The position numbers and the translations under genes are program-made. DNA of 64,000 bases from Blasia pusilla (Eukaryota), in assembly GCA_050084515.1 (NCBI GenBank), contig CM114271.1, positions 35,030,001-35,094,000 on the forward strand. Direction: 5' to 3'. The stretch's first letter is position 1, and each line of letters opens with the position of its first letter. The notes below the pieces were generated by a model, which saw only the letters and a list, made by a program, of their open reading frames with translations, had not been told where the DNA came from and ran no database searches. Positions 14,731 through 64,000 of this stretch are shown here, in pieces.

Positions 14731-14736
14731 GTACTA

Positions 14737-19790: not shown

Positions 19791-19796
19791 TTGATG

Positions 19797-19946
19797 TGCA
19801 TGTTGTGTGGGTCTGCTGGTAACGCAACCCGTATGTTGGTGTGTGATCGGTGTTCTAGGGGTTGGCACATGATGTGTTTGACTCCACGTATAGATGTTGT
19901 TCCTCTTGGAAGGTAGGTTTGTCCTCGATGTACTAAGGAGAGGTAG
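19797..19946 (+). pseudogene. PHD finger (C4HC3) at the integrase C-terminus of copy A
   Basis: CMLCGS...MLVCDRCSRGWHMMCLTP...VP.GR*VCPRC, with TAG where PHD fingers have the conserved Trp. Confidence 0.9.
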
Positions 19947-33100: not shown

Positions 33101-33546
33101 GCGTTTGAGGCACGGATGAAACGGGAGTTTGGCGCTGAAACCCAAACCCAAACCCGATCCAAGGGAGTGGACTTTGTACGCCACACTTGGATTCCAACCG
33201 AGATTCACCGTCAAGTGCGAGTCTTGGTGAGGAACTCATTGGATGTTCATCGGACGATTGGAACCGCTAGGCGCGAAACGCCACAGTGCAGTTGTTCCTG
33301 AACCGACCAGAAAGTCTGTCCCAAGTCTTTCGAGACTTGCCCGTGTTGGAAACCGCGAAACTAGGAAGGTTGAGCTTGAAGAGAGAGTCCGAGACGAGAA
33401 CTCGGAAAGTAATCCCGCTGATTGATCCAAGACCCGACTAACCGAAGTGCGTGTTTGGATGTAGATCAGCGTTGAGAGCGTGACCTACTGAACGCACGCT
33501 TCCGCAACAAACAAGATTAACGTTCAAGAAGAGTAGGCGCACGACA
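26128..33546 (+). mobile_element. Full-length Ty3/Gypsy chromovirus, LTRs 26128-27157 and 32515-33546
   Basis: TGTCGCG...CACGACA LTRs; PBS TGGTATCAGAGC; gag CCHC CYNCGEPGHMAKEC (~28290); protease remnant LLVDT; RT YIDD; RNase H TDASD; INT-chromodomain; many 1-nt indels. Confidence 0.95.
27160..27171 (+). promoter_or_regulatory. Primer-binding site complementary to the tRNA-iMet 3' end
   Basis: TGGTATCAGAGC begins 2 nt after the LTR end. Confidence 0.9.
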
Positions 33547-35299: not shown

Positions 35300-36300
35300 G
35301 ACATGAAAGGAGATGTGACTGCAAAGGTTATTCATCCCATGATTTTTGTGCTTGTACAATATTCCATCCTTGGTAGAGTTGATGGTATGGCATGCTCGCC
35401 ATCGATCCATTGATGGTGTGATATGGTTGATAGTGGACTCTCCAATCCATTCCTATGTAGAGAGCACCTACTCAATTTGGCAACCAGAGCCAAGGAATGT
35501 AGAATTGGATCTAGGTACCACTCGGATGTGACTCTACAGTCTTACAAAACGATGCTACTGAGTGTGGCTAATTATGTTGGTGAATTATGACATCCATCTT
35601 GGTTGGCTATGGAGAAGGGTTTCTTGATTATGGGATTGATCATCATGAGTCCATATTATGACATTTCCTTAAGTAAGTAGCATGAATACACATATTCATT
35701 TCATGGAATATAATTCCATAAATAATATGTTGTGTATGTTAATGAGCTCTCCATGATGCACGCCTAAGATGGCTTGCCATGTAGACATGTAACTTGAGCC
35801 CTTGGGGAGGAGTTATCCACCCTATTTGGGGGGAGTTCATATGCCAAATCTTGCCGTGGATAGGAGAATTCAATGTCATGAGAAGACAAGGGTTTTCAGA
35901 CCTTGGGCCATGGTGTTATGCACTAGGCATTATGCACTTAGTAATTATTTTGGATCGCCCCTTGTTCTTATGACGCATCATGCTTATCAATGGTAATACG
36001 ATAGCATAGTAAGTGGATCATAACTATGCAATTAATATCATTTAACTCTTACTTTGGATTGTAAAGATTGTGGATACATATCCGTTTTGCAAGTTTCAAG
36101 TAAGGTAGCATATCCTAGGTGTAGACTTGGGTCGGAGGCTGCATATTGCGGGAGAGTTGAGGACCACCATATACCCAAGTGCGGCCAAGTATTTTCCTCG
36201 TGGGCATTCCATAAGGGTGGACTAGCTAGGAAGGACACTTGATAGATGACATTGAAGTATCATCTCCTATGTTGCATGTGGATTGATTGGTGTAGGAAGA
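35300..36300 (+). pseudogene. Degenerate CACTA (En/Spm) Tnp2-like transposase remnant
   Basis: LMVWHARHRSIDG...VDSP...EPRNVELDLGT resembles the Transposase_21 pattern M.WH...DG...DSP.W...EPRN.RLGL.TDG; boundaries uncertain. Confidence 0.65.
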
Positions 36301-41800: not shown

Positions 41801-41851
41801 TACATAGATCAAACCCTTGGATATCACTCATATGAGCATCTAAAGTTTTGA
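38850..41851 (+). mobile_element. Heavily decayed Ty1/Copia internal region (gag, pre-integrase, integrase, start of RT), 3'-truncated
   Basis: QELWEVV (gag start), VWHKRIGHMN (~40235), LDLIHFDV, LRCDGGG, AIGCKLVY..K...G, LVVNGYAQQYGIDYDEIF; INT-before-RT order. Confidence 0.88.
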
Positions 41852-41865
41852 TACCGCATATACAT

Positions 41866-42800
41866 TGTCACGTCTTTTAGGATAGATCGGTGAGATCTAG
41901 TAGAGCGCCTTTGTGAGTAGTAGAGAATAGGCTCACTAGGTCGAGGGAAACCTGTTGAGGCCCAAGGAAACCTGAGAGAGCAGATTTCCCCTTCGTTCCG
42001 GCTCGTTTGGAGCCATATTGAGGAACTTACTATTTTAGGTAAGTACCATTTTGAGTATATGATCGACTTTATATTTTTGGTAAGTGATCCTTGACCTCCT
42101 ACATCAAGGACAAGAGCCAAGAAGTGACTTGGGAGCATAGGTTACCATTGAGAGACCTTGGGAGAGATGAGGGATATACCTCAAGGAGAGAGAGTTTGAG
42201 AGCTCATTCTCTCTTTGTTGAACCTCATGGCATGAGGCGGCGGAGCTATGGTCTTGCTTGCCTTGTGTGTGTAACCCAAGCCTCTCATTAGGAAAGTGGA
42301 TTTGGTTTGACATTGAGAGACACATGTGAGACTGCACATATGTGAGAACTATGGTGTTGTGAGAGAGATTGGATCTTATTTTACAAAGAGAGAATTGAGT
42401 GAGTGAGAGAGTTTCATGGGGGAGCTTGGTGGTTGTTCGATGTTTGAAGTAGGTAAGGGGAACGTGTTCCCCACTTCATGGCTCATGGGAGTGCTCGCCA
42501 GAGCAAGAGCCGTGCGAGTTTGCTGTTTTGCTTTGCTAATTTTTTGTACGGGAGAGTGGCACGCGGAAGCGCTGCCCAATTTTTGATAGGAATTGAATAT
42601 GGAGGCGGATTGCTACATGCTGGTGCTCTCACGATCACCATGTAGCTTGCTGATTTGTGTTCTCAAAGGTTTTACATTTTCGTTGGGAGAAATCAGCGCG
42701 GAAGCGCTGCCAAATTTTGTGTAGGAGAAAGAGACATTGGGTTTTACGTCAATCCCTGTCAGTTTGTACTGGAATTTTTGATTTCAAATAATTTTTGACA
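41866..42800. mobile_element. Possible LTR-like segment interrupting the Copia RT
   Basis: TGTCA...TGACA termini and an abrupt composition change; no matching TSD. Confidence 0.3.
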
Positions 42801-44237: not shown

Positions 44238-47200
44238 CTTAACGACACAGCATACATCGCTGTCACCGAACACACACACAAACATGCACGATCCCATGTT
44301 AACTCATGGCATCCAAAGAATGAGACAAGAAGTACCAAAATATCTCCAATCGCCCCCCTATTTGGTGGTTAGGTCCCTCTAACTCTAGATACCCATCTAT
44401 CCCTAACTACCATGATATACATCTCTCGGACGCTAAGACCAAGAAGGCCGGGTGCTCATGTGGCCCCATTGTTTGTTGCCTTCTTGTCATCCATGTCACA
44501 AACACAAGTCGGGATGTAGAACTACCTACTCTATGTACATCTGGGACACATCCATCGTCCCTAAGGAACCCTAATGAGAGGTGGCGTCAAACCTACCATA
44601 TGCCATCATGTCGAACATCCATCTCAGACTAGCATAGTGGCTGCACCACGGGCGGAACCACACAACATACACCGCAAGCTTGCAGGAACTATTGCTAAGC
44701 TCGGATCAACTGTACCGTCAATGTTCGGAAGATGACATGGCGCACAGTGACGCACACGGTCCTTCTAAGCCTTACCATCGCGTCCCTCTAATAAGAGAAC
44801 ACCGGATGGCAAAACCTCACGTAGTCTCAAGATGGTGCGCCCAATAGTCACATCCAACATCATGGATACCGTCTGCTACAAGTAGACATAGTCTCCGTGA
44901 TGAAACCTCCGGATAGTAGGTCGATAACCACCTCTCTAAATAGTCGCATACCTCAATGTATCCTGATGTTGCGCAATCGCCAAGTTCTCAAACATCATGG
45001 GCATCATTCTCTGTAACAACTCAGCCCTCTCACAACATGCTCCCATCCAGACATCAGGGTTATCAAGGTTCAACACCTCAATTGTATCTCGATGAATGGC
45101 CGCTGGTAAATTTGGCTCTGGGCCATAGAGCAACAAGTACGGTGAGAAAGACGCTAAGGATGCTTGCCTGCTAAATCTGTATCCCATCGCCAACCATGGA
45201 AATTGTAGGTCCCAATCTCTTAGGTGATCTCTCTGCAAGCTATACTTGCGTAGTCCTCTCTTCACCGTCTGCACAACCCGCTCCGCTAGTCCATCTGCCT
45301 TAGGATGATCTCGCGAAGTAGTGCGGTGGTCGATCAGTGTCTAATCACACAAGGCCTAAAACTCCCCGCAGAACTCTGTACCCTGGTCTGTCAACACCTC
45401 AGCTGGTGTGCCATAATGACTCAACAGTCAATCTAGGAAGGCAAACGCTACTCCCTCACTCGCTTTTTCAAGCAATGCTACCAACTCTATTCACTTCGAG
45501 AAGTGATCGACCATCACCAACACATAATGACTATGGCGCTCCGTCAAAGGCAAAGGTCTTGCAAAATCCAAACTCCATCTATAACTTAAACCCATGATGG
45601 GAAGTGGATGCAACTGTGGAGTTGGAGCATAGAATGATGCTCGGACTTGATCACACACCATGCATCTGGCAACAAACTGCTAAACGTCAATTTGCATGCC
45701 TCGCCACCAATATTGAATCTAGAGCAAGGTGTACGTCCGCTTCTCTCCAAAATGACCCAACTCCTCGTGGGCATGACCCACCAAACCTGCTCTCTGCAAA
45801 GGAGGAGGCACTACACGCACTCTACCATCCTCCCACACTTGCAACACATGTATGCCTTCCCACGGGAATCGTCTAGCTCGTTGTAGGATCCGATCCCGCT
45901 CTCTAGCACCCACTCTGCTCGCGACGCTGCCAGTACACAAGTACTCCTAGACCAATCCATCGTCGTGAATGTCTCAGCCACCTGTCATCTCCTCATCGGC
46001 CTCTGGATCTTAGGACTCTCCATCAAACCTCGCCATCAAAGTCTCAGCAATCTGGCTCTCCAGAGCCAACAAGCCCAAATAGGCTGAAGCATGCCATCCT
46101 GGCACCAACTCCTCATCACTCTCACCATGCCCACGAGCTATAGTTGCATCTCGCTGACTCGAGCATGGGTTACGGCTCAAACCATTTGCATCCTGGTTGA
46201 GCATCCCAGGTCTATGCACTACTTGGAAGTCATACTCCTGCAACAAAAGAGCCCACCTCGTAAGCTTCCCTGTAAGCTTGTCAGAATCTATCAACCACTT
46301 AAGTGGCTAATGATCAGTAATGATGGTAAAGGGATTGTCAAATAGATAACATCTGAAATGTGCGACAGCCCATATTGCAGCCAAGCACTCACCCTCATAC
46401 GAGCTATACTTTGCCTCTGCAGCATTGTTCGAGCGAGTAGCATAAGCCACCAAAAACTCTCTACCATCATTGTCATGTTGGGTGAGCATGGCTCCAAGCC
46501 CCAACATGCTCCAATCGGTATGCAACTTGAAAGGACGGCCCCTAATCAGTCTCCTCAATATGGGCGTGGACGTCAATCTGTCCTTGAGCATCTGAAATGC
46601 TCTCTCTTGCTCATCCCCCCAATGCCACTCTTGATCCACCTTGGTCATCAAGGTTAGCGGCTTTGCAATCGAACTAAAACCCTTGATGTATCGTCAATAG
46701 AAGTTTGCCAATCCCATGAATGTACGAATTCGACTCACATCAGTAGGGCATGGAATGCGTGAAATAGCCTCTACCTTTGTCTATTGCACACCAAGGCCCC
46801 CAGGGTATATTGTATGACCCAAGTACTCAATCTGGTTGTAGAAGAACTTGCACTTGCTTGGATGTAGCTTTAGCCCATGTAATTGCAATCGTCGAAACAC
46901 CTCCTCTAGATGTCGCTCATACTCCTCAACCGTGGCGCTAAAGACTACAATGTCATCAATATAACACCTAACAAAATCCAGACCTGCCAAGATCCTATCC
47001 ATAACCCTCTGAAACTCAGTTGGGGTGTTCTTTAACCTGAATGGTAAGAACCGCCACAGTACAAACAATCCTTCCCTTCTAGATCAATGCCCCAAAATGC
47101 CGTCTTCGCTTGTCCTCCAATCTGATAGGCAGTTGATGGTATCCGGCTCGCAAATCCAATGAATTGAAGACCTCTGCATGCCAAATTGCATCAAAGATCT

Positions 47201-50200
47201 CCTCACGGGTGGGCATGGCATACCTATCAGCCTTTGTCTGCCGATTGATAGGTCAGTAATCTCCACACATCCGCCTATCCGTCCAATTGCCATGCACATC
47301 CTTCTTGGTGGGCATGACAGTGGCAGATGCATACTCTCCATGCAACATTTCCACTAGTCCTGCTCCAACCAAGTCTTGGCCCCTACTCTGAATTAGAGCC
47401 CTCTCCATGTCACTATACCTATAGGGTCGTTGGAAGGTCGGCGTATCACTCGACAACTCAATGCGGATCCCTGGACCCTTCAGCGTACCCAAATCATGCA
47501 TACTAAATGCAAAACAACTCCTATAACTCTTAAGAACTGGTGTATCTGACGCCGCTCTCCTCTTGTCAACTTAGGACCCATATCTGGCTCCCAAGTCTCC
47601 ATCGTGACTACGATAGGACTCTTCGGCGCGGATGTTGGTGGTCGCTATGGTGCAACCCCATCTTGGACAATAGAACTCAGAACCACTTCCGATGCTGTGG
47701 CTATCATCTCCAAGCGTACATGCAAAACATCCCAAGAAGTCCAAGGGTGTCTCTCTCGATCACCCCTAGTGTGTCGACCTCCTTGGGTCTGGCCCCCAAC
47801 CACTGCCTCAACTGTCTCGGTAGGCATGGGGCTCACCAACGCAACAAATGTGATCTGTTGCATCCTCAAACAACGTTGCTCAGTTACTCCCAAGCTGAAA
47901 ATCCATGTCAAGCAGTTCAGGTCCATCGCCTGACCCAAGACATGACGTCGTGATGCCTCCGATAGTGACGGTACTTCCGTCACTCCTGTGGGGAATCCCA
48001 TTGCTCGCTCTCGCTCATCGGCGTTGGGCTCCAACAACCTCTATACCTAGTCATCCCAAACCAAGCTAGGTCCGGCCTCCTTGAATGCATAGGAAGCAGG
48101 AAACTTAGCAATGTGGGATAGGCGGATCGTGGCATGCCAATCCTGTTGACCATAGTCAACGGCGGTCGATCATCATGCCTCACTGCCTGTGATCGACCGC
48201 TCGGATCCAATATAGAATCCACCAACAAATCGGAGGGACGCTCCACTCTTGCATAAGCCCTCCGTAATACCTCATTAGGTACCAAGTTGGTCCACCAAAG
48301 ACGCGAGCGATGTGCTTGTGAACCCACACTCACTGCATCTAACAACACTGCCGGGCCGATCCATGCGCGCACCTGATGTGCACTCGTCACCACGCGGGAC
48401 CTCAAATCGCCCAGAATTGGAACATTCTCCAAAATGTATGTTGGAGAACGAGATTGATGCTCATGTAAACGTTGCAAGATCCGCATCATCTCCCAAAACA
48501 ACCTGGACCGAGTGTCAGCTAACCCACTACCTTGTTCAGCACTGGATTGGCCCTGACACAGCCAACGAGCAGTGACCAAGTCTATGGTCCCTACCCGCTC
48601 CAAGTCCTGCGCCCCCAACAATGAAATCTCCCTCGGTAGGGAACTCTGGAAACCTTGAATGGCGGACACAGACAACAAGCCGGGAAAACGGAGGAGTAAC
48701 AGCGCCACATGGTGAAGTGAAGCGCGCCTCACAACATCATCAATCTCCACATATAGATACTGCTGCATGTGCACTCCAGCCTGCAAAATAGCAGCTAACC
48801 CAGTGCTGATCCTTCCAAAGAGATCCAACATCCAAATACCCTCCTATGGGATGCACAACACAATCAGGGTGGTGTCCAAATGGGTCATAGCAGCACTCCT
48901 ACCTACGTGGGGTTCCTCTGACCCGTCACACTCTAGTGCAAATGTCTCGCTCCACGCGGTCTGCATATGCTCAGTGGCTAAGCGTTGAAGCTCCTCAGTC
49001 AATCCCCAAAACGACACCTCTCCTCCACGAACTGATGCGGTAGTAATCTAGGGAAAACCCCATCGGGTATATCAGTGCTCCACCAGCCAAGACATCGTAG
49101 GACTCTGCATCAGTCTCTATCGCCTTGGCTCGCACCACGGACTCATCTGTAGGATGTCCCACGCGAATCCTCACCATGACCTCTTGTCGGGTGATATACT
49201 GTGTGATACTCGCTCCACCCAAGGATGTATGTATCGGAAATGGACAACGCTCCACATCGGCTCTCGTCAAGCCCCCATTCCTCTGAATGACGCTTTTCCC
49301 AACATCAGGGGTTGCACTCCTGAATCCAACAAGACGCGCTATGGATTGAAAGCTCTACCTCTAGGACTCACCAACTGGAAGACCTCTCCATGATTATCTA
49401 GCAACACAACACCAAGAGAAAACATGGCACGCTCTATCGCGGGTCTAGCGGGCTTCTCCGCCATCCTAGCAGCCGCAGTCTGCCATGAATCTGACGTGGA
49501 CGGCCCCAGCGTCCGCTCCAAGGGCAAGTCCATCACCTCCTCTGCAATCACCTCTGAACCTGATGTAAGAACTCCAACTCCACGCTCACATAGCATAGCG
49601 GCCAGCCAAAAAACCTCGGCGGGCGTACCTCCCAACATCATAACATCGGAAGCAGAAAATAAAGGAGCGGGGTACACAACGGTGGCCGCCCCCAACAACG
49701 TGCTCGACACATGCCCCTCTTGAGCATCAACAATATAAGAGTTGTTGCACTTGCTTCTCTCATCGCCCTCCATGCCTGCACACCAACAACATCACCAACT
49801 CTCCAAGAACTTTGATGAGGACCCATCGATGGGGTCCTCATCGCTTCGGACAACGTGAAAGACTTAGGAAGCCTAGTCTATTTTCTGGCTTCCCCTCATT
49901 GTGGATCCAACTCTCCGGTTGCTCCACGCGTCACAACTGTGGTGGCCTCCATCTGGGCAACCCCGCACATCCAACCAAGATCCTCCATATCTCTGGCTGC
50001 TCCATATGATGTCGATGCCATGGATCCGGCATCGGGTAACCTCAATGCCATAGCGGCAATCTGCTCTTGTAGCTACTGTATCTGAGCAGCCATCCTAGCC
50101 TCACATCCGGCATCTCCCTCGGCACGTCTAGGTGGTGGTACTCTACCTCCTCCACAAGCAGCTCCACCACCCTGTCGGGCAACTCCAACTTCTCGTTCCC

Positions 50201-50260
50201 CAACATGACCATCTGGTGCACATCTCTAGGCCCACCAAGACTGGCTACTCGCTCGAGGTG
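44238..50260 (-). mobile_element. DNMT-Gypsy copy B (gag end - PR - DNMT - RT - RH - INT - PHD - PPT - Y), pseudogenised and truncated at both ends
   Basis: PR RVLLDSGVQP (~49305-49337); DNMT 47880-48840; RT CYIDD (~46960); RH TDWS; INT; PHD ~44540-44675; PPT taggggggcga at 44350-44360. Confidence 0.93.
47880..48840 (-). pseudogene. DNMT3-like C5 methyltransferase domain of copy B
   Basis: LDLFGRISTG, RWLCQG (PC changed to LC), ILENV, AHRSRLWWTN, EPNADERERAMGF, LGQAMD. Confidence 0.92.
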
Positions 50261-50685
50261 CGGTAAGAGGAGAGGAAGAGAGGAAGAGAGGAAGAGAGGA
50301 GAGAGGGAGAGAGGAAACTACCTTCAACCGAAATAGATGCCTTTTTTTAAGAGAGTTTGCTATGATTTGAAGAGAGTTTTCGTTGGGTTGAAGAAAGGAA
50401 ACTTTTTGTGTGAATTTTTTTGCACGTTTTTGCTCAGTTATTAAGCAGTCCCATAGTTTTTTTTTCTCTTCCATATTTTGGCAACCCATCTGAGTCCCAC
50501 CAGTTGCAAATTGCACAAAATTTACAAAATTGAAAAATCAGTGGAATCATAAGAGTGGAACCAATCACATTTTCCATCCAAGGTCTAGAAACAATCTATC
50601 ATTTGTCTTGGGCTAAATAGAGTTCAAGCTCAAAGTGAAGGTTCTGGAAAAATGAAAGTACAATCTAAAACCTCATTTTGCATCC

Positions 50686-53600
50686 TCAAAGTGGTTTGTT
50701 TAAAATACTTCGCACTTCTTTGGGGGAGAGAACTAGTTGGTGGATTCCTACTCCTACCTCCGACTCTCTTAAAACTACCAGCAACACATAGTACATGTGC
50801 TCATAAGGGAAAAACCTTTTGCCAATTGTCTCTCTTTGGACAAAGTCATCACATGAACATGTGGGAAAGCAACAAATGTGCACCACATACACCCCTATGA
50901 CACTTGAATTTACAGTGTTGTTCCTGACTCAATACATCCTTCCTATTCCATTGCCACGCAGGACATCTTTCGTGGCGATGATCTCCATTTTTGCCTCCCG
51001 AGCTTATGCAATTCGCTTTGCTCTCTCCACCGTTGGCCTACACATTATGTTTCTCTTCACCCCATTTCTAGACTCAAATAGAAATAGTGGATTGAGATCA
51101 TCCACCTTCTCCGGGTACATGTTGACATCAATCTTGGGTTGAATACGAAATGCAAAGGTCTCTGTAATGCGAACATGCTCCGAACTTCCCCCGTCTACAA
51201 GTCTGAAACCGGCACTTGTAAGATTGTCCACTTCGTCTTGAGTGCAGATCGTACCTACATCGATGGGCCAAATCGTGGGGGTATTCCCCGAGCTCCAATG
51301 GCAGCCGGATAAGACTTCCGGAAAGCGCAAGATTCATTTGGGCAGAAGAAGTACTTCAATTGATCCCGAGTCCTCCTGAAACGATCAAAGGTTTTGAGTC
51401 CCCAAAACCAGCAAAGTGGTCGCCCGATCCTTGTCTGATTCTTATTTAGGAAAGTGCCGCATGCTCTCCTAATGCCATCAGATCCTGCCCTGCAGGTGGG
51501 TCCACATCAAGGGTTGCTCCGAGATATATACCACCATTTTAGGTTGCAATCCACCTCCATTACCGGAATCCCATATTGTTGAACCACCCTAGTGACCGGA
51601 TGTTGCGAACTTCCAGCAACGGAGGGCTTTTGAAATAAAACATTCAGTGATTTTGGAAAAGGGTCTCCATCACGGATTTGGGAGCGGTCCGGGGTTCCCG
51701 AAAACCAAGGCGGCGTAATTTTCTCATCCAAATCAATCACCGGATTCGTTCCTCGATGCTGCCTCTTCACCTCCCTGAAGTCAAGATACTTATCTGGTCT
51801 CCACGAGTCTCGCTCGGACTGCTCTACCACCATCTGTATGGGATGTCTTGAAACCCACCCACGAATATCCCCACCAATGTGTACGTCTTGCTTGAGGGGA
51901 GTTCCAGCTATGCACCGGTTGAAGGCTTCCACATACAGTTTTTCATCACCCGATCTCACAACCGCCCTCACATAGAGCTCGTAGATCGATGGCCCCCTTC
52001 CTTTTGTTATGCCTTTTATGAGGAAGAGATGGGATGCTGCAGACTGTAGCATTGCTCTTGCCTGGTCTTGTTGGCATGCCTCTACAAGTGAAATTTGTTG
52101 GCATGCTTGTGACGACCTCCAGGAGGAATGAACACTTTCTGCTCCACTTGTGTTGGGGCAGAGGGCATTTTCATGAATGTTCAATCCCTGCAACGATGGC
52201 AATGTTGGAAGGGAACGAAAATAGCTCAGGAGTCAAAGAAATAAGCTACCTATCGGAACCAAATAGGTTGCAAGGCCGAGGCATCCCATGAACGACTCTA
52301 CGATCCGTCGGGTTCCGACGTGTTGCAACCCTAAACCCACCTACTGCAACCCGTCAGATTCAGACGGGTTGCAAGAACGTGTGGCCAATCTTGAAGATCC
52401 AAGTGCAAGTCATCCGAAACCCATCTGGGTCAAACTATTTGCAGGCCTTGTATACAGGTTGCACCAAAATTCTGGATGCAACCCGTCGATTTCCGTTGGG
52501 TTGCACACTCGGGCAACCCGTTGCATCCGACAGCTTGCTTGGTTTCTTCGGTTTGAAATCCCTATAGTTCCCACGCTTCTCAACTTTACCTGCAACTTTA
52601 CAAACAATTCTCAGCATGAGCTTGACAAGACAAAATAGTGAACTCACCTACCGTATGAAGTTTCCCCATTGTCTCATACGTACAGTCCACCAACTCAACC
52701 AAGAGCACAAATCTTTGTACTTCCTCTCAATCGCATGCTTCCTCCACCACTCATGAAGTTCTTCTTGGCATTCCATGGCCTGTTTCAAGGTTTTGCTGTC
52801 CTTGCAGCGTTGGAGTAGAGTGACATGCTATATCCTCTTATTCTCCTTGATGCAAGATTTGGTGTTCCAGGTCACAGACTGTTGCCAATGGAAAGCATCC
52901 GACCTGTCCCTCTCCGGTTGAACCTCTCCACCCCAGAACACTTCCCAGATAGCAATCCACCCAGGTTGTGCATTTTCTGCCATGAACCCATAAATTTTTG
53001 GAGGTGGCCTTTTCTTTTCCTTCACCACCTCCAATAAGAATAACCAGCACATCTTCAAACTGCCAACGTCTTCTGCTTTTACTTCACAGAAAAATATAGT
53101 TTTGAGTCCCTTCTCCACATGGTCATAAAGGTGAGCACCCATTGTCAACCATTCGTTTAGCACTCTGTAGCAAATATCAAAGCTTACCCATCTGCCCTAA
53201 AGATCTTCCCCTTCCCTCATTCGATCTATAAGATCGAGGCCACTCGACGGACGTGTGGTTGACATTTTGAAGACATAGGCCCTGGATCCCTCGCCTCCTT
53301 GGCCCATGAACTGCCATCTCTGAATGAATGGAAATCTGGAGTTTGCCTTGATTTTGGCGATGGCATCCATTTCGGATGTCTTTCCATCCAGAACCCGTAC
53401 TTGATGCAGCAAATTCCGGAAGCATTCAGGATCAGCGAGAAATGCGAGATTTTCCCATAGTTGTTTCTCCTCAGCCGCCGTGATCTTACCCTCTCCAGGG
53501 ATTCCAAAAATTGTTCAAAAATTTGTGATGCTGTTGTGAGCTTGATCACTCCGGGATTTGAGACCGGAGAGTTTCTGTAGACCTCGGCAACTTTCTTCGC

Positions 53601-54657
53601 CACATCCTCCTTGATGTGTCTCTGAATTGCATCGGTCACAAGATGAGTGGGAGCCAACATGAACTGCGAGCCTTCTGTACTCTGACGTGGAGCCCAAGTC
53701 GTGGACAATGAAAAATATGTATGTAGGACATGCTCCAACGCAGAAGGGCGATGCCTGACGATGAGGACATCGATGGCCTCCCGGCGGTATGGTGGCACCG
53801 ACCTCGTATGGAGTTTCTGCATTCTTGGGGGGGAATTGCGACGTATTGACTCGCCCATTGCGCTCTAGATACAGGCATGCTGGACTTCTACACAACAAGG
53901 CTCCAACGCATTGGCGGTAGGAGAAAATCCAAGGACCATCTGGAATTGAAGCACTAGTGCGTTGAAGCCTGCACCATCGATGACAATCAGACTTTCTGTC
54001 CATACCCTTCAGGCGTCCTCCATCTTTCTTTTGAGCAGGAGCAGCAAGTGGAGGCAACTCAAAAATGCAATTACCATCGTACAAGGGCAGCAGCTCGTCG
54101 ACAAGAATGTGCTTGAACATTTTTAAGGCCAGAGACGATAGCAAACTATTGCCTGATACTTGCAAGAGGAACGAGTAGGCGGACAGAGGGCCCGGTTGGT
54201 GTCCGACAGATCCACTGAGGTTGATAACATCCGGAATCTCTTCAGGAAGAACAACATTGTTATGAGCGTGTGAAGTTGGAGTCGAAGCCCGATCTAATGA
54301 GCTAGGAGTTGCAAACGTAGAGCTCGGTGCACTAGGAAATTCTCGACCGTCTACTTGGGAAACAGAGGAATTCAGAGGCAAGACGTAAACTCTGTATTGA
54401 CCATTTGCTAGAGGTAGGAGATTCCATACTTAATGGTATGCAATCACTGGCTGGACTATCTCACCTATAATGTCCTCCGTAGCGTCCACCCTAACATCCT
54501 TGGATACAAAGATGGTTCCAATTTGGAGAAGAAATCGAACAGAGAGAAAATTTTCATCCACTGCTATGAAAGACTCACGAGCTTGCGGTCGAACGATTTC
54601 TGATTGAGGAAGGGCCACTAGATGACTGCCACAAGTGAGCTTCTCATAATTATCCAT
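50686..54657 (-). pseudogene. MULE-type DDE transposase with N-terminal Cys-rich domain and C-terminal SWIM finger
   Basis: CHRWC..RQCVGALLCRSPAC (Zn-binding); WVSFD..RV..W.T.GAHLYD; GFMAENAQ..W...DRSDAFHWQQS; after GT-AG intron 52647-52188, PNTSGAESVHSSW (third acidic residue); SWIM-like PTCSCDDF...FFPYEHMYYV at ~50790-50865; stops and frameshifts. Confidence 0.78.
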
Positions 54658-55109
54658 TCCCTGAAGATTCCACCAGGAGGAGACTGAGAATGAGAATGAG
54701 AATTTTTAATTTATAGTGAATAGGAACTCAGATTCTCCTGACAGAATTTGACTGACAAGATGAAGTTTGGTAGGTGAAAATTTCTGACACAATGGATTCA
54801 ATTTTGTTGCAACCTGTCGGAGTCATGTGGGTTACAGAATTTGGGAATCAGAGACGTGGGTTGCGAAGCACACTTCATTTTGTTGGAACCCGTCGAAGTC
54901 CGTTGGGTTGGTACCCCCTTCTTGCCGACCAAAGATCTTTTGAGGCAATTTTGCTATCATCAAACACAAGATATCGCTTGCTTATGCTAGGGAAACTAAT
55001 CGTTGGGGACTTTTGCAGGATTGTCCAACTCAGGGTACATCTTGTGACCCGTCGGATTGCAATGGGTTGCCTCGGAAAATACGTTGTTGCATTGTTTCCC
55101 GAGGGATAG

Positions 55110-55810
55110 GAAAGCGTGCAACCTGTCGATAACCGACGGGTTGCCTTGGTACCTTGCCTATTAACCCAAAATAAGCGAAGCATGCAACTCATCGGCTTCA
55201 GACGGGTTGCACGCTTCTGCCTCACCTTGTAACGCAAACATGAACGAAGCGTGCAACCCGTCGCTCTCCGACGAGTTGCGTGGGTACCGCGCCTTCTTGC
55301 TCAAAGAAGGCGGAGGCGCGCAACCTGTCGGCCTCAGACGGGTTGCACAATTATCTCACGGTGTAACACTTACATTAAGGAAGCGTGCAACCTGTCTATT
55401 TCCGACGAGTTGCGCGGGTGCCGTACCTTCTTGCCCAGAGACGGCGAGGCGTGCAACCCGTCGACCCCAGACGGGTTGCCCAAGGGCCTCGCCTTGTTTC
55501 GCTTACATGAAGGAAGCGTGCAGCCTGTCGGACTCCGACGAGTTGCACGGGAAGCCCGCATTGTTATCCCTTGACGAGGGAAGCGTGCAACCCAACGGTC
55601 TCCGACGGGTTGCGTGGGTACCTCGAGTTCTTGTCCGAAGACGGCGGAGGCGCGCAACCTATCGGTCTCCGACGGGTTTCTCGGGCACCTCGCATTCTCG
55701 TCCCAGGACGGCGGAGGCGGGAAACCTATCGGTCTCGGACAGGCTGCCACGAGGACGGATGCCTTGAACCCTCGGGAAGTGTGCAACCCGTCGAAGCCGT
55801 CGGGTTGGTG
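55110..55810. repeat. ~67-bp-period tandem array, each unit carrying the 27-bp palindrome, in the divergent promoter region
   Basis: Palindrome starts at ~55118, 55184, 55253, 55320, 55387, 55453, 55520, 55587, 55654, 55721, 55783. Confidence 0.9.
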
Positions 55811-55896
55811 TTTTTCATGTCCAGACTTCCGTAACGGCCGGCACGTCGCCATCGGAAGGACGATGCGACCCAACGGTCAGCCCAACGGCTCGAAAA

Positions 55897-55906
55897 GTAT
55901 ATATAG
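55897..55906. promoter_or_regulatory. TATA-like element between the palindrome array and the ParB-MTase gene
   Basis: gtatatatag, ~280 bp upstream of the ATG at 56185. Confidence 0.5.
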
Positions 55907-56006
55907 GGGAGAAATCGCTCATTTTCGGTTTTCCATTTCGCGATTTGAATTGCTCTCCCGCGCAGCAGCTGACCAGATACCCAAGGGCGCTTTACACGGC
56001 GACTCA

Positions 56007-56096
56007 TCGCGAGACGATTGGAGCAAACGATTGCGAGACGATACGAGCAAACGATCGCGAGACGATTCGAGCAAACGATCGCGAGACGATTCGAGC
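56007..56096 (+). repeat. 24-bp tandem repeat, ~3.7 copies (TCGCGAGACGATTCGAGCAAACGA), in the putative 5' UTR
   Basis: Units start at 56007, 56031, 56055, 56079. Confidence 0.9.
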
Positions 56097-56184
56097 TATC
56101 CATCAAGGCGACTCATCTTGATATCACCAAGGCGAGTCATCAAGCAATTCATCGTGTACATAGGAAGAGGCATTTCCGGGAAAA

Positions 56185-59100
56185 ATGACGAGGAAAAAAT
56201 CTCAAGTGAACAAGGCTGGGAGCTTCACTCCCAAGCCCATGAGGACTCCTGCATCACCATCTCCAGGGCCTCGTTCGGCCAATGAGATAAGGCAGCAAGA
56301 AATCGAGGAGCGGGAAAGGGAAGCGGAGATGCACAAGCAGGAGCTTCTTGGAAAACGTGTACAGGAGGCGCTCAAAAAAAAGAACGTAGAGGCTGAGGCG
56401 TCGCAGGCCTAGAAGAAAAGGGTCGTCGAAGAAAAGCGAGAAAAGAAACGTCTGGACGCGTCGGTGAGGAGATTAGAATTGGCTAAAGCGAGGAGGGAAA
56501 AAACAATAGCCATTGACGAAAGCCCTGCCCGTCCAACCGAAAGTGTTGAGATGCAAGAAATGTCCCCGATGAAGTCTTGGGACACAATCAATATAGCGGA
56601 AATGGCCCAAGTTCAAGTCACGGACGATGAGGTCATGAGGACCACCAGCGTGGAGATTGTGGACATCGCTGAAGAAGCAAGAGAGCGGTCATCCTCGTCT
56701 CTAAGCCCGGCGGAAGAAATTGACCTCTATCGGACTGAAAATTTTCTAGTGGACTTGCCAGCTGCTGTCCTAGAGCAAGTGGTTGGCCAAGACACCGAAC
56801 CAATCTTCGAGCGGGTAAGAGAGGATCTGTGTTCTTTGAATTATGTGAAGGCCCATGTTGCAATTCATTTGCAATTCAGTGTAGCTTATTGATCTTGTCC
56901 CCGTTGTGACAAGTGATAAAGCAGATGGCACTGATGGAGGGCCACAATGCCCCGAGAATTCCACTTTGCCAATTGCGGACAATGGAGTACGTCCGCGAAA
57001 TTCAGTCTAACAAGGATATTGCGAAGCTCAAACAATCGGCGGCAACACCATCCTACGTCGACAGCTTCCCTCCGTTCTATGTTCAGCCTTGCGATGACCA
57101 TGGAACCCAAGCGCTGGTTACGGAGGAGGACTTGGAATCGCTCGACACATTCTGGAGGATGAGAGATCAGGAATTCAGAAGGGCGATAGAGGGGATGGTA
57201 TTCAGCTGGATGAGGAACCTGTATTTCTTCATATGGGATGGAAATCAGAGATTCATGGCGTGGACCCAGTTTGCAGAGGCGCGCCCAAACTCATTGGAGG
57301 CACATTTTTGTGTGAAGGCAGTGGTGCTACATCCATACCCTCATCACATGGCGATGGTGGAGATGGCCATGCATGCCATGAACACGTAAGTTTCCTCTTG
57401 CTGCAAACCGTCGGACTCCGACAAGTTGTTTGAGTCGCCACTATTTTTGGGATGTTTTAACCGAAAGCAACTTGTCGGACTCCGACGAGTTCGACGACAG
57501 ACCACAGGTTTAGGATGTTTTTGGGCCAAAGCAACTCGTCGGAGTCCGACGAGTTGCTTGACTGGCCGCATTCTTTGGATGTATTTTGAAGAAAGCAACT
57601 TGTCGGAGTCCGACGAGTTGCTCGACTCGCCGCATTTTTTGGATGTTTTTGCCCCAAAGCAACTCGTCAGAGTCCGACGAGTTGCTCGACTGGCCGCATT
57701 CTTTGGATGTATTTTGAAGAAAGAAACTCGTCGGAGTCCGACGAGTTGCTCGACTTGCCGCATTTTTTGGATGTTTTTTGAAGAAAGCAACTCGTCAGAG
57801 TCCGACGGGTTGCTTGACTCAAAGCTGTTTTTGGATGTTTTTTGATGTTTTTGGCCGAAAGCAACTCGTCGGAGTTCGACAGGTTGCATTCGAAAGTTGG
57901 GAGCTACATTTTTGGCGTCAAATTGCAACTTTCAATGAAATTGCGCAACCTGTTGGACTCCGACGGGTTGATATGTTCACTTTTTTCGCGGTAACCACTA
58001 TGTAAATACAGACTATCTAACAACCGTCGGAGTCCGACGGGTTGAAACTAGGCAATCACAAATCTGAATGCAATCCGTCGGACTCCGATGGGTTGCAAAA
58101 TTTAGCTCGTTGCTACAATCCAACCATGAGCTGTGACGACCTGTCGGAGTCCGACGGGTTGCAGGAACCCAGGTACCTTACAAAATTTCTTATATTGAGT
58201 TTGGATGTGCAGGATTGTATCGGAGGGGAATGTCACCCACCACTGGATCCAGGATTGCGATCGGGTGAAGAAAGTGCTAACGACGCACCCGGCATAGTAC
58301 AAGGGGTTCTTGGGCGACGCCCTTGTAAATGAGATGCTGGCAAAGGGTGCACAAATCAAAAAGAAGACTTGGGCAAATAAATTTATTTCCCAAGATGCAG
58401 CCGTCACAATCCTTTGCTCGTCAAAGATACAGGCCGCCAAGAAGAGCAAAGCATTGGAGCTGGAGCGGAGGGAGAAAGTGTCTATGTTTGAGCGTGCAAA
58501 ATTCATCCAAGCTGCAATATCTGCAGCTACGAAGTACACTGCAAGCAAGATGCAGCGCTACATCGCCATTCTCAACCCCGAACTTGGTCCCGATTTCTAC
58601 AAGGAGCTGAAGGCGATAATCAAGCGCCAGCGAAAAGGGATGAAGATCCGCAAGGTCGGATTGGGGAGAAAGTGTCTCTCGATCGCGTGAATCGATTTGC
58701 CTTGTCTGGAATAAGAAAATTTAGGAGAATACGACTGATGAAAATCAGTCTCGAGGGCACAAAGGCCATAAAGAGGGCGGCACACCATCCTCCGGGTGTC
58801 TCTGATCCAGTGATCTCCCATTGGCTCCGTGAATGGTCATTCTAGGACGCGTTGCGGCTTCTTGGGAAGTTCACGCTTGTGGGTCTCCAAGCGGAGCTGA
58901 AAAGAATAGAGCCACTTCCGGAGGAAAAAAACCTAGAGAGTGCTGATGATTTTGAACTTTGGCTGGATGACATCCGGGACAAGCCCATAAAAAACCCAGG
59001 ATTAAGGACGATGTTCAAGGAACGCATCCTCCCTCAGGCAGACTTTGACGAAAAAATGAGGCGAAAAAAAGGGATTTCGCAAAGAAGAAGTGAGATCTTC

Positions 59101-61027
59101 AGGAGCAGGAGGCCGATGCATCTCGACTAAGAGTTGCCCAACGCATGGTGTTCAGATACCTCATCCATTGTCAGAATGCAGGTACATGGCGAAAAATACC
59201 TGCAGCCTGCAAATTGTGGGCTTCTCCGCTTGATGGAGAGACATTTTCCATGTACGACACGGAGATGGCTCAAAGCATGTCCGATTGGGAGGTGGAGAAT
59301 TGCCCTATTTGGCTGGACTTCAATGACCCTAAGGACATAACCGAGAAAGATCTACGTCTGCTTTATGATGCACTGGCCGCAAGTAGGAACGACATCCCCA
59401 ATTTTGTGCAGCCTGCAGACTTTTTCGGAGGAGATGCGGAAGAGCAAGCCCTCGAGACAGCGGAGTTGGCGTCCAAGGTCCACACAGCCAAAGACAAATC
59501 TACAGCGGGTCTCAAAGGCAAGGCAAGGGGATCGAAGAATTCCGAGGCCGAGTCTTCCCAAAGAGAGGCTGAAGATTGAAGGCGAGAGCCGGAATCGTCC
59601 GGGCGAGTGGGGAGAGAGGGTCAGACCAGGTCCTCCGCAAAAAAAACTCCACCTGACTTATAGAGACCCCAACAAGCCGACCGCAGACTCGGGAGAAGCA
59701 GAAGCGAGAGGCGCCAGGGTTGTCCCAAGGAGCAGACTAGGATGTGGAATACAGTCCATCATCCTTGGGAAGATATAGAGAAACAATGACCCAGAAAAGC
59801 GTCATCCTTCACTTCACGAATCTACTTGATGAGATGAAAAGTTTCAATTCCCAAGCGTCAACACACGCCATCGAGAAATTGACAACGCTGGGACGAAAGC
59901 TTCAACGAAATGGGCACGCTCCCTGGACGGTCCATGGGATGGTCGAAGAGGTGGCGGTGGATCTCTTGGTCGCTAATTTGCCCTCGGGGTTGCGCTTGTG
60001 GGACGAGAATCCGTCCGACGGGGTCCCAGACTGGAATGTCGCCCTTTCTTATGACCCGATCGCGCTGCTGTTTTCCTTTGCAGACGCTTATCTCAATGAC
60101 AGGGGTTGTTTCTTAGTTTTGACTGGAGGAAGCAAGGACAAGCTTTTCAACCTCCAATGCGTCAAGAGGTTGCTGAAGTGGAGGACGGTGCAATCGTGGA
60201 TCATCAAGAACGAGTACCCATTCCGATCCGCGACGAGTCAAATTCGGGTAAGGCTCTATTCCTGTCTCCAGATTGTATTTCTTTGACGGATTGTTTTTGT
60301 CCATGAGCAACCCGTCGCATTCCGACGGGTTGCTCATGGACAAAAATAACCCGTCGGACTCCAATACGTTGCTCCAATGTTAGGATTATAGCGAAGTTCT
60401 CTGGGGTTAAGAAAAGTTCTTTGGGGACGTGTTGCACATTATGTCACTATACTGAAAGTAGACCAGTGGTCAAGTAGCTCTTTCTTGGTGCTGACATTGT
60501 TTCCAACGTGCATCTTTACAGATGGACCACTCCTATGTTTAGTGCTTTGTTCGGCCGGAGCACAACTTCCAGGTGTTTAAGATCGTGGATCCATGCTCCA
60601 ATGCGTACAACTAAGATAATTTATACAATCCCTCCCCCCGGGAATTTACATGCAAGACGGTACCCCCTTACTTGGAGGAAGGGAAAAGTCGCCAGCCCTG
60701 ATGCAAACGCTCGTCGAGCTCTGCTCAAGGCCGGGTGACCTGGCGTTCGACTTAGTGGGGCTTTGAGGGGCGAGTATCAGAGGCGTCTGGCATAGTGGCA
60801 GGAACATTCTCTGCCTTGAGGGAAGGCAGCAATTGTTTGACCTTTGCAAGGAGGTAAGGGCAGATTACGACAGGCTAGTTGGGGCGTATAACTCTCCTCC
60901 AAAGCCGAGAGCTCCGGTTCCAAACCCACCATTGGTAGTGACACCATCGTCACTTCCCACGATTCCAAAAATCGGGAGGGCAAGGCCGACAATAATTTTA
61001 CAAGAGCTATCGGACGATGACGAGTGA
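56185..61027 (+). pseudogene. Multi-exon gene: coiled-coil N-terminus, ParB/Srx-like domain, C-terminal beta-class N4C/N6A DNA methyltransferase-like domain
   Basis: Introns 56815-~56912, 57386-58212 (GTAAG...TGCAG, splices in frame as AMNT/IVSEG) and 60248-60521; ParB-like FFIWDGNQRFMAW (~57225-57263); VDLLVANLPSGL (~59957); REKSPALMQTLVELCSRPGDLAFDLVGL*GASIRGVWHSGRNILCLE (60680-60820, outside the listed ORFs). Confidence 0.75.
57403..58162. repeat. Intronic array of ~12 palindromes; 64-bp period over 57403-57813 with a 128-bp higher-order unit
   Basis: GCAACTCGTCGGAGTCCGACGAGTTGC and variants at 57403, 57467, 57531, 57595, 57659, 57723, 57787, 57861, 57945, ~58018, 58070, ~58136. Confidence 0.93.
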
Positions 61028-61069
61028 GTTCAAAGAACTCAAGGACCCAGCTTGACTACAGCGTTTGGA

Positions 61070-62200
61070 GTAGGGATTTATTTGATGAGGAGGGCAAAAG
61101 AATTCATAGAGTAGATCAAATGAATAGTTCCGAGCTTCTTTCGGATGTAATAAAGGACAAGATTTTTTGAACGATGGTGGTGTTTCTAAAAGTTTGCTGA
61201 ATATCTTTTATGTCTTTTCGAATGTGATCGTCTATGCACTCCGTGGACTTCTATTTTGCAACCCGTCGGATTTCCACGGCTTGCAACTTTTCACTTTTTG
61301 ACCACTGCACCTTTTTAACCACTTCCAGGAAACCTGTCGGATTCCGACAGGTTGGTTGCGTGAGTGATCGGACTCTTTCCCTGTTGGTCCAACTTAAGAG
61401 GCAGTCTGGCGGGCTTCTTCACTTTGGCACCTTTCCCTAGTATCATCAAACAAGGCGTAGGCTTCTTCTCTTCTCTCAGACGTGTTGGATTCCTACTACC
61501 TGTGGGATTGCCATCACGGTATTACTAAGGACGGAGCACATATTGATATAGGATGGGTGTCACATTGCAAAGCGTACAAGATATACTGCCGAGGAAGGCG
61601 GTGGGACTCAAATTAGGTTACATGGGACCATTATGGTGTACCTAGGGGGGGCCAAGGCTCTCGAATTCGCCAACATTTTTGATCCCTGTCTACAATCGGC
61701 CAGAGGAGCCACTTGTATCCCAGGACATTCTTTTTGTACAGGAACCTAGGAGAGTTAGGAGTAAATTTGTAGATGACGAGGCTGAAGAAATCATAGACTA
61801 GATCAAATGTATATTTTCGAGGTTCCTTCGGAGGTAATAAAGGACGAGATTTTTTCAACCGATAATGGTGTTTGTAAAAGTTTGTTGGAAATTTTTTGGA
61901 CTTGTGGATTGTGTTCTTTTAGCTACTCAGAATTACAATTTTGCAACCCGTATGATTCCGACGGGTTGCAACTTTTCGCTTTTTGCCCACTGCAACTTTT
62001 TAACCATTTCTAGGCAAGCTGTCCGATTCCGACAAGTTGGCTGCTTAAGTGATCGGACTCTTTCCCTGTGAGACCAACTTCTGACGCATTGTGGCGGGCT
62101 TCTTAACTTTTGGCTCGTTCCCCTACATTCGTCAAACCAGTTGTAGGCTTCTTTTCTTGTCTAAGATGTGCAAGATTCCTACTACCTGTCGGATTGCCAT
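61070..62200 (+). repeat. Diverged ~450-bp direct duplication (about 61070-61520 and 61755-62200) carrying palindrome copies
   Basis: Shared blocks tcataga(g/c)tagatcaaatg, taataaaggac, ttttgcaacccgt, gtgatcggactctttccctgt at ~685-bp offset. Confidence 0.8.
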
Positions 62201-62966
62201 TTCGGATTCCCAACCTGTTGGATTTTTGTGGGTGTAGGGTGGAAGGGAATCACTTATCAAAATCTTTCCTTTCTTATGGTGAGCTTGCTTGCAAGGGGTG
62301 CAAGTCATCTGATTCCGATGGGTTGCAAGAGTTGCAACCTGTAAAATTCCGATGGATTGCAAGAGTTGCAACCTGTAAAATTCCGACGGGTTGGGAGGGG
62401 TGCAGCTTCTCGGTTTCTCAAATTTAGGATCTGAATGAAGGGACATCAGTTCCTCTTTACTCCAGACAGCTAACAATCTTTCACAAAGTTGGTCTTGAGC
62501 AGACATCATTCATAACCAACACAAAGTTGGTTATGAGGCAATTCAGGGGAGGCCATGATGCAGGCAAAAATCCCTGCAAAAAGAGAGGTTGGCATCGTAC
62601 CGATGCGCATCCGGGTGGTCCTCCAACAAAAATACCCATGGGCATTGCTTATTGTAGACCGAGAGAGGCAATGTTAAGAAACTTAGGCTCACATGGAGAG
62701 TGATGGAAAAATATTTGTAGTGGTCTTATGATGTCTACTTTTTTTTCGCCCCCTGGAAAAAGGAGGTTTCTTTAGGCCCGAGTGTGGACCACTACCTACT
62801 CTCTTCTAAAGATTTCATGAATTTGAAAGCAAAAAAAAATTTCAAATATGTCAAAAAGTTTTGAAGAGAGGAGGCGGATTTGGCCCTTTTTTTTTTGAAG
62901 AGAGACTCTCCTCTCTTCCTCTTTTCCTCTCCTCTCTTACTCTCTCTTGCCAGAATACCAGCCCCC

Positions 62967-63915
62967 ATGGTCGAGCACTTCTCAAAGTGAATAGAGTTTA
63001 TTGCATTGCTGGAAAAAGCGAGTGAGGGAGTAGCGTTTGGCTTCCTAGATTGAATGCTGAGTCAATACGGCGCACTAGTTGAGGTGTTGAGAGACCAGGG
63101 TACAGAGTTCCGTGGGGAGTTTCAGGCCTTGTATGATCAGGAACTGATCGACCACCGCACTACTTTGTGAGATCATCCTGAGGAAGATGGACTAGCGGAG
63201 CGGGTTGTGTAGATGGTAAAGAGAGGACTACACAAGTATGGCTTGCAAAGAGGTCACCTAGAAGATTGGGACCTTCAGTTGCCGTGGTTGGCGATCGGAT
63301 ATAGATTCAGCAGGCAGATATCCTTAGCATCTTTCTCACCGTATTTGTTGCTTTATGGCCGAGAGCCAAATTTACCTGCGGCCATTGGTCAAGATGTTGA
63401 TGAGGTGTTGAACCTTGATGACCGTGATGTATGGATGCAAGCATGTTCTCAGAGGGCTGAGTTGTTTCGGAGAGTGATGCCCATGGCGTTTGAGAACTTG
63501 GCGATTGCGCAACATCAGGATACGTAGAGGTATGCAACTATTTGGTGAGGTGGTTATTGACCTACTATCCGGAGGTTTCATCACGGAGACTATGTCTACT
63601 TGCAGCAATCGGCATCCACGACATGGGATATGATCACAGGGCGCATCATCTTGAGAGTGCGTGAGGTTTTGCCATCCGTGTTCTCTTATTGGAGAGACGC
63701 GATGGTATGGTTTGGAAGGACCATGTGCATAACTGTGGGCCATGTCATCTTCCAAACATTGACGGTACAATTGATCCGAGCTTAGCAATAGTTCCTGCAG
63801 GCTTGCGGTGTATGTTGTGTGGTTCCACCCGTGGTGCAATCACTATGCTAGTTTGTGATGGATGTTCGAGAGGATTACATATGGCATGTTTGACCCCACC
63901 TCTCACTAGGGTTCA
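62967..63915 (+). mobile_element. DNMT-Gypsy fragment D: integrase core to PHD finger, inverted relative to copy B and closely similar to it
   Basis: MVEHFSK*IE, DQGTEF, DGLAERVV, FSPYLLLYGREP, CMLCGSTRG...VCDGCSRGLHMACLTPP; matches the reverse complement of ~44570-45515. Confidence 0.9.
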
Positions 63916-64000
63916 TGTCGCGACCCTCATGACCAAACAAGTGCCAAGCGGAACATCGAACATTAGCGGGCTCACGCTAAGATGGTTTGCGCGTTGGAGT
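63916..64000 (+). mobile_element. Start of an LTR (same subfamily as the solo LTR at 10514-11525) inserted into the PHD finger of fragment D
   Basis: TGTCGCGACCCTCATGACCAAACAAGTGCC... matches the reverse complement of ~11440-11525. Confidence 0.9.

Follow-up and report, generated by a model that had tools for sequence, protein, structure and literature searches.

A 27-bp palindrome repeated through the non-coding parts of a decayed two-gene DNA transposon of Blasia pusilla

The repeat and the transposon that carries it

We analysed 64,000 nucleotides of Blasia pusilla DNA (assembly GCA_050084515.1, contig CM114271.1, positions 35,030,001 to 35,094,000, forward strand). This whole stretch is called the window, and positions are counted from its first letter. 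It contains one decayed DNA transposon with two genes, a transposase gene and an accessory gene (gene 2), which diverge from a spacer at ~54.7-56.2 kb. A 27-bp palindrome recurs along the element. The repeat is real, it belongs to this one transposon, and it is restricted to the non-coding parts.

The palindrome consensus is GCAACCCGTCGGAnTCCGACGGGTTGC. It had 17 matches in the window at three mismatches or fewer, and 100 dinucleotide-preserving shuffles yielded 0. At seven mismatches or fewer, 38 non-overlapping copies were retrieved, with ~0.02 matches per window expected by chance (binomial, equal base frequencies). Every copy lies inside 50481-62394. A profile built from the 38 copies added weak ones at 52248, 52513 and 55783, and perhaps at 52416, for a total of ~42. 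The remaining 50 kb of the window contains other transposons and genes and is without a copy; the profile gave just three partial rows there, at E values of 3.2 or above. The core pattern had 0 matches in the metagenome and viral collections. A literature search with the motif letters returned only primer coincidences among the matches listed.

Flanking bases are complementary in 21 of the 38 copies, so the dyad is closer to 29 bp than to 27 bp (wGCAACCCGTCGGAnTCCGACGGGTTGCw). True tandem arrays were found twice, at 55112-55747 and at 57409-57845. Outside them the palindromes form ~10 clusters with mutually unrelated flanks and spacers, and neighbours are often spaced 64-84 bp apart. Thirty-five of the ~42 copies flank gene 2 or lie within it (14 in the shared spacer, 12 and 2 in introns, and 7 in the 3' region). 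The 3' region also contains a duplicated segment, 61084-61514 and 61772-62200, with 80% identity between the two copies. A layout like that of clustered regularly interspaced short palindromic repeats (CRISPR), with 27-bp repeats and 37-44-bp spacers, was considered and set aside, since the spacers of any one array are duplicates and the setting is a transposon in plant nuclear DNA. Just upstream of gene 2, the spacer holds a 24-bp tandem repeat (56006-56096, 3.8 copies, 92% matches) that is unrelated to the palindrome.

Palindromes are absent from every exon defined by homology. These are the transposase exons 54429-52651, 52232-51510, 51333-51007 and 50928-50689 and the ParB-like exon of gene 2 (Table 1). 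The other gene 2 exons were defined by open frames and splice-like sites alone. The putative introns that hold palindromes span ~52647-52233 in the transposase gene and ~57387-58212 and ~60248-60521 in gene 2.

The transposase aligns with its relatives over the conserved blocks W.MFD, GFMADNA..W.AVR and ER..FH, and a later exon contains AESVH and a Cys/His cluster. By their resemblance we take these blocks and the cluster to be like the DDE core and SWIM finger of Mutator-like (MURA-type) transposases. The window copy has E in place of a conserved D (FMAEN), and its one long frame is interrupted by stops. It is therefore a pseudogene. Read through with X at three stops, the protein retrieved 277 relatives at E ≤ 1e-3 and 92 at E ≤ 1e-10 from 1.84 billion representatives. 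Ten relatives were looked up and eight were named, all from liverworts (seven from Riccia sorocarpa and one from Calypogeia fissa). One was labelled 'SWIM-type domain-containing'. The seven R. sorocarpa matches suggest many paralogues in that species. The exons are collinear with those of relatives on metagenome contigs. Pfam, including its Mutator-like element (MULE) and SWIM models, gave no family at E ≤ 10 for the window protein and none at E ≤ 0.01 for 10 relatives. ESM Atlas returned matches to one transposase exon at 0.80 only, which is uninformative. A word-indexed protein search gave nothing for one transposase exon, one open reading frame across the palindrome array, or the ParB-like exon. 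CACTA-type ends and terminal inverted repeats were sought at ~50.3 and ~62.9 kb, and the only finds were GA-rich, low-complexity inverted matches (~50.27 and ~62.92 kb).

Gene 2 contains ~1,100 codons summed over its open frames, and it appears decayed from its in-frame stops. As a whole it has no match in Pfam, NCBIfam or PDB. One of its exons contains ...WDGNQRFMAW.... By ESM Atlas features, the top named clusters for this exon carry PF02195 ParB_N or DUF6551 (score 0.94, recognition 2956). Nine of its 10 best family-bearing matches share a family or clan, a result of the kind rated a lead. The DGN[QH]..AW motif is kept in four distinct relatives. By language-model features and motif, the N-terminal part of gene 2 looks like the N-terminal domain of ParB.

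An earlier sequence-only reading of this DNA had counted by hand about 35-40 copies between 50481 and 62394. The mismatch scan and profile reproduce that count, and the cluster-by-cluster counts agree with it as well. Its statement that the repeat occupies only non-coding DNA is borne out for every exon definable by homology. Its label 'transposase' was right in kind, as judged from the relatives and exon collinearity, though Pfam does not recognise the protein.

Table 1. Features of the palindrome-bearing transposon (window positions)
Feature	Coordinates	Strand	Basis or detail
Transposase pseudogene	50689..54705	-	DDE-like core, SWIM-like C-terminal Cys/His cluster, at least 3 in-frame stops
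Gene 2, accessory gene divergent from the transposase	56164..61024	+	Open frames; in-frame stops at 56410 and 60764
ParB N-terminal-like exon of gene 2	56955..57329	+	Motif FFIWDGNQRFMAW; ESM Atlas features; exons of relatives
Single degenerate palindrome	50481..50507	.	~180 bp 3' of the last conserved SWIM-like transposase exon; 5 mismatches; nhmmer E 0.0017
5-6 palindromes in a transposase intron	52245..52540	.	Donor GTGAGT at ~52647 on the minus strand; next exon starts by 52232
14 palindromes in the ~1.5-kb spacer between the divergent genes	54809..55810	.	55112-55747 built of 67-bp units with a 133-bp higher order
12 palindromes in a gene 2 intron	57403..58162	.	Intron starts 17 bp past the ParB-like exon; 57409-57845 built of 64-bp units
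Two palindromes in a further gene 2 intron	60291..60372	.	Copies at 60307 and 60346; the first (60307-60333) is embedded in a 59-bp extended palindrome, 60291-60349
Seven palindromes 3' of gene 2	61258..62394	.	Two pairs in the duplicated segment; three units in a 34-bp tandem array, 62312-62393

Arm symmetry and conservation of the palindrome

The sequence-only reading had also held that the two arms co-vary, as in a dimeric protein site or a hairpin. The covariation did not survive counting. The arm pairs gave 494 cells. The consensus pair was kept in 359, a one-sided change was present in 122, 10 were compensated, and 3 were doubly changed and unpaired. Five of the 10 compensated cells came from one tandem array (57467-57723) and two from the duplicated segment, which leaves about five independent events. 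Shuffles contained 8.2±2.3 compensated cells, and 143 of 500 shuffles reached 10 or more. The compensatory changes are thus not beyond chance. Paired cells made up 82.2% of the observed set vs 81.9±0.7% in shuffles.

The copies differ from the consensus at 148 places; 83 of these changes are C>T or G>A, and 43 are CpG transitions. The arm variants CTCGTC/GACGAG and CCTGTC/GACAGG both result from C>T and G>A transitions, which fall on mirror-image CpG/CCG sites. Covariation-like variants occur at about the observed rate because independent deamination-type decay at mirror-image sites yields them. Apparent covariation between the arms of a CpG-rich palindrome can therefore come from methylation-type decay alone. 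The symmetry is a property of the ancestral unit and is not maintained through compensation.

The sequence itself is better kept than its surroundings in both arrays. Palindromes in the array at 57409-57845 are 87% identical vs 72% for the spacers, and they are the more similar in 20 of 21 unit pairs. The array at 55112-55747 gave 80% vs 60%, with palindromes higher in 20 of 20 unit pairs. They outdo the spacers although their CpG density is higher. The sequence is constrained and the pairing is not, which fits a site read by a protein dimer better than a hairpin.

The central base is T in 14 copies and A in 1, so orientation is nearly uniform. The flanks of the 38 copies were searched for exact direct matches of 3-10 bp, and one 7-mer was found in 1 copy. 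No target-site duplications surround the 38 copies, and at 9-10 bp there are none even with one mismatch allowed. The uniform orientation and the missing target duplications speak for spread of the palindrome by local duplication and against spread by insertion.

Single copies are predicted to fold at -20 kcal/mol, and 60301-60339 at -32.7 kcal/mol. Two neighbouring copies with their spacer are predicted to form one long stem (-56 to -58 kcal/mol, z -6.5 to -10.7), and 27-bp stems are possible. The long stem follows from the copies being self-complementary by construction. Rfam had no family matches anywhere in the window. The hairpin half of the earlier suggestion finds no support, with no excess pairing and no Rfam family. 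The protein-site half is supported by the context, the relatives, the conservation of palindromes above spacers, and the published parallel described below.

Related elements and the surrounding sequence

Related elements were retrieved from metagenome contigs with transposase relatives. The set contains 80 loci in 554,984 bases (~555 kb). None of the 80 contains the window's palindrome. The ParB-like exon was found by profile in four distinct loci (L025/26, L044, L035/37/49 and L050/51). All four have it upstream of the transposase, on the other strand, so gene 2 travels regularly with this transposon group.

Several relatives contain palindromes of their own. L001 is the best transposase match, and it has three copies of a GC-rich 26-mer palindrome in the homologous transposase intron, where its gap is 315 bp. 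The corresponding gap is ~80-120 bp in L002, L004, L012, L014 and L057. The palindrome-bearing intron of the window is 3-5 times the length seen in most relatives. L044 contains nine 51-bp units, each with a ~24-bp palindrome, ~2.1 kb downstream of its ParB-like exon. The L044 core recurs 9-10 times in L025, both downstream of the exon and in the spacer on its transposase side, and 4-5 times in L035. The core common to the three is CAACTTTTG-N4-CAAAAGTTG, and it is present in 0 of 74 other loci. The ParB-like exons of the loci that share it are mutually 66-79% identical.

Loci of at least 7 kb were scored for strict clusters of at least three like palindromes. Such clusters are present in three of the four distinct loci with the ParB-like exon vs one of 12 without it. 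The Fisher test gave p ~0.03, with the three positive loci mutually related. The sole exception in this count is L078-L080, which contain three like palindromes (CTAGGCTAAGCAACCTAGCTTAACCTAG) in 700 bp (~7250-7960) and no detected ParB-like exon. The first 50 kb of the window contain no strict cluster of at least three like palindromes.

A 35-bp palindrome (GGTCGGGAGTCAAACTGCCAGTTTGACTCCCGACC) was also recovered, from L032, L033, L035, L037, L049, L052-L055, L070, L071 and L076-L080. A second palindrome, of 26 bp, often lies ~190 bp upstream of it, and the pair occurs once or twice per locus. Both have a GGAGTC/GACTCC core, as at the centre of the window's palindrome. The pair could be a dispersed module or an element end.

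The rest of the window resembles plant nuclear DNA, with an F-box/Kelch gene, chromodomain Ty3/gypsy sequence, and units with C5-DNA-methylase and PHD sequence. The F-box/Kelch gene, an uninterrupted frame of 399 codons (7608-8807) with a KIB1-4 beta-propeller domain besides its F-box and Kelch domains, is of an ordinary plant type and is the clearest sign in the window of land-plant origin. The Ty3/gypsy sequence (23909-33547) encodes integrase, chromodomain and reverse transcriptase. It contains a 3.2-kb repeat (23958-27158 and 30351-33547, 97% identity). This repeat is a tandem or nested pair and not a pair of simple long terminal repeats (LTRs), because it contains integrase coding sequence.

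A unit that encodes a fragment of a C5-cytosine DNA methylase, together with a PHD finger, is present three times, at 11920-20585 (A), 44347-50410 (B) and 62850-63914 (C). Direct repeats of 369 bp (11920-12288 and 20217-20585, 94% identical) enclose copy A. The palindrome-bearing transposon has copy B on one side and copy C, in the opposite orientation to B, on the other; 44566-45514 and 63914-62967 are 87.6% identical. Copy C resembles copy B minus ~4.7 kb. A relative of the methylase reading frame adjoins the transposase relative in L028. The unit is possibly a mobile element with a DNA methyltransferase as cargo. An 86-bp inverted match (63916-64000 and 11440-11525, 97.7% identity) adjoins gypsy-LTR-like pieces at 10.5-11.4 kb, and copy C is probably cut short at the window end by a young retrotransposon insertion. 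The GC skew is +0.12 to +0.27 over 12-34 kb and -0.11 to -0.24 over 44-52 kb, and it tracks the orientation of the methylase units and the gypsy sequence. An AT-rich block (34001-42000, GC content 32-38%) lies between regions of 45-53% GC.

Possible roles of the palindrome and comparison with known systems

The reading we favour, tentatively and at a little short of an even chance, is that the palindromes are parS-like docking sites for a protein encoded by the element, and that they now decay in a dead copy. The palindrome would be a cis-acting repeat of this one DNA transposon with its two divergent genes. A dimeric, element-encoded protein would bind it. By analogy with the parS-ParB pair, the likeliest binder would be the ParB-like protein that gene 2 encodes, and the second candidate would be the transposase. 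Amplification of the sites would have produced arrays in the introns, the 3' region and the promoter region that both genes share. Such arrays would let many protein dimers load onto the element's own DNA. The window copy is dead, with stop codons in both genes, and its sites are decaying through C>T and G>A transitions.

Several observations weigh against docking sites read by gene 2. Palindromes in the duplicated 430-bp segment are 81-85% identical vs 80% for the flanks, and are thus no better conserved there. Sequence searches of Pfam, NCBIfam, PHROGs and PDB found nothing for the ParB-like exon. AlphaFold models of this exon were unusable, with a predicted local distance difference test (pLDDT) score of 33.8 from the single sequence and 35.9 from a 5-row alignment. 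For a DNA-modifying domain in gene 2, Pfam, NCBIfam and PDB gave none, and PHROG gave 'DNA methyltransferase' at only E 0.15, over residues 315-367 of the read-through (C-terminal part). For six or seven palindromes the transposase is the nearer of the two genes. Not every relative has palindromes: only three of 33 loci, those with at least 150 bp of sequence downstream of the transposase match, have one within 700 bp downstream of it. L050 has a ParB-like exon and just two strict palindrome copies. The three loci behind the exon-palindrome association are relatives of each other. A match of palindrome type and exon type alone is not proof of co-evolution, because close elements share everything by descent.

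The likeliest of the alternatives, though on balance rather unlikely, is a functionless internal satellite. It would have grown by slippage and unequal exchange inside the transposon, with the dyad an accident of the founding unit. Two palindrome clusters are plain tandem arrays, and the relatives are rich in tandem arrays of many kinds. The near-uniform orientation fits local duplication, and the share of C>T or G>A among the substitutions is like that of unselected methylated repeats. The arms do not co-vary, and the window copy is dead. A satellite fits less well with a palindrome that is found in ~10 clusters with unrelated flanks and spacers and is more conserved than the spacers duplicated with it. 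Unrelated palindromes also recur in the same kinds of places in relatives, and one founding accident does not account for this. Less probable than the satellite are subterminal or internal repeats bound by the zinc-finger-rich N-terminus of the DDE/SWIM transposase and not by the gene 2 product, a reading we consider improbable. Such sites would resemble the repeated motifs of other cut-and-paste elements in plants; TnpA of En/Spm reportedly binds a repeated 12-bp subterminal motif that contains CCGAC. Copies do lie within and past the transposase gene (52245-52540 and 50481), and L001 has its three palindromes in the homologous transposase intron. However, terminal inverted repeats and element ends are not definable here. 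The sites are spread across the whole element and are not subterminal, most of them surround gene 2, and palindrome arrays accompany loci with the ParB-like exon.

A source of hairpin or double-stranded RNA comes next and is more improbable again. Transcribed palindromes would fold, or neighbours would pair, and feed small-RNA silencing of the element. The predicted folds of single copies and neighbour pairs speak for this. However, pairing is at chance level, one-sided changes number 122 against 10 compensated ones, and a match to an Rfam family is absent. Last in order, and very improbable, are tiny mobile palindromic elements, like minute miniature inverted-repeat transposable elements (micro-MITEs), reinserting near their source. 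The palindrome does lie within many unrelated flanks, and the transposase intron is longer than in most relatives. The missing target duplications led us to reject the idea. Orientation is uniform, the 50 kb outside the element contain zero copies, and exact core matches are absent from the metagenome and viral collections.

Our preferred reading remains that a protein of the element docks at the palindromes. A stronger version seems doubtful to us. It would be a working ParB/parS-like self-recognition module in a land-plant transposon, in which dimers load and spread or bridge, and in which a fused DNA-modifying domain marks the element's own DNA or excised copies are tethered. Palindrome and protein would evolve to match each other separately in each transposon lineage. 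If the palindromes do serve as docking sites for a ParB-like protein of the transposon, a bacterial-style module of a protein plus a repeated palindrome would operate in eukaryotic transposons from red and brown algae to land plants. The element could then recognise, mark or organise its own DNA. Bryophyte relatives of the element would supply a defined 27-bp site and a candidate binding protein.

The element shares several features with plant MULEs. The order of its DDE-like motifs and the C-terminal SWIM-like cluster resemble those of MURA-type transposases, and it has two genes. In contrast to MULEs, the Pfam MULE and SWIM models have no match, and no long terminal inverted repeats or 9-bp duplications were found. 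The genes of MuDR are convergent, whereas the genes here are divergent.

Bacterial ParB-family systems offer a second comparison. The sopC sites of SopB on F, chromosomal parS, and the KorB operators of RK2 are short palindromes. They are often in tandem, and they lie near the gene of their dimeric ParB-family binder or are scattered in promoters. The element likewise contains palindromes beside a gene with a ParB-like product, a putative homologue of ParB. Unlike the bacterial systems, it is a eukaryotic nuclear transposon with a site of 27-29 bp (13-16 bp in bacteria). A ParA-like partner was not seen here, and a helix-turn-helix domain was not identified.

The closest parallels come from algae. 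Giant Plavaka transposons of red algae carry an accessory gene, PAG3, with a ParB-like N-terminus (HHpred E 0.29, no InterPro domain; bioRxiv 10.1101/2025.02.11.637652). "Tandem arrays of inverted repeats" adjoin the ParB-like accessory genes in these red-algal transposons, and self-binding was proposed there in 2025 (Petroll et al. 2025, bioRxiv 10.1101/2025.02.11.637652). The same accessory genes are also found with Mutator, Zisupton and Fanzor-encoding elements (same preprint). As far as the passages cited describe those elements, ours is like them in having a DDE transposase, an accessory gene with a ParB-like N-terminus, and adjoining arrays of inverted repeats. The ParB-like part is without a domain from the hidden Markov model libraries in both, and self-binding is a proposal in both. 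A DDE transposase and gene 2 lie in the same element on opposite strands in the window and in four metagenome loci. Tandem arrays of inverted repeats adjoin the ParB-like gene in the window and in L025, L035 and L044. Unlike Plavaka and PAG3, as described in those passages, the host is a land plant and the transposase falls in another family, of DDE/SWIM type and unclassified. The partner domain here looks weakly methyltransferase-like, whereas that of PAG3 is 2-oxoglutarate-oxygenase-like. The repeats here are also present in introns and in the 3' region.

Sola1-1_Ec32 of Ectocarpus contains a gene of 1104 amino acids, ParB-like and with an N4/N6 DNA methyltransferase, on the strand opposite the transposase (PMC12477816). 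Gene 2 is similar in size, counted as summed open frames, and is also opposite its transposase. The proposed role in both is to bind and modify the element's own DNA. The two differ in transposon superfamily and host, and palindrome arrays are not mentioned in the cited parts of that article. The methyltransferase domain here is just the E 0.15 match.

Searches of open-access papers and preprints for ParB, transposons and bryophytes or accessory genes gave no land-plant report among the papers listed. The element would be a land-plant member of the kind described in algae in 2025, with a putative ParB homologue, a putative methyltransferase domain and putative binding to its own palindromes.

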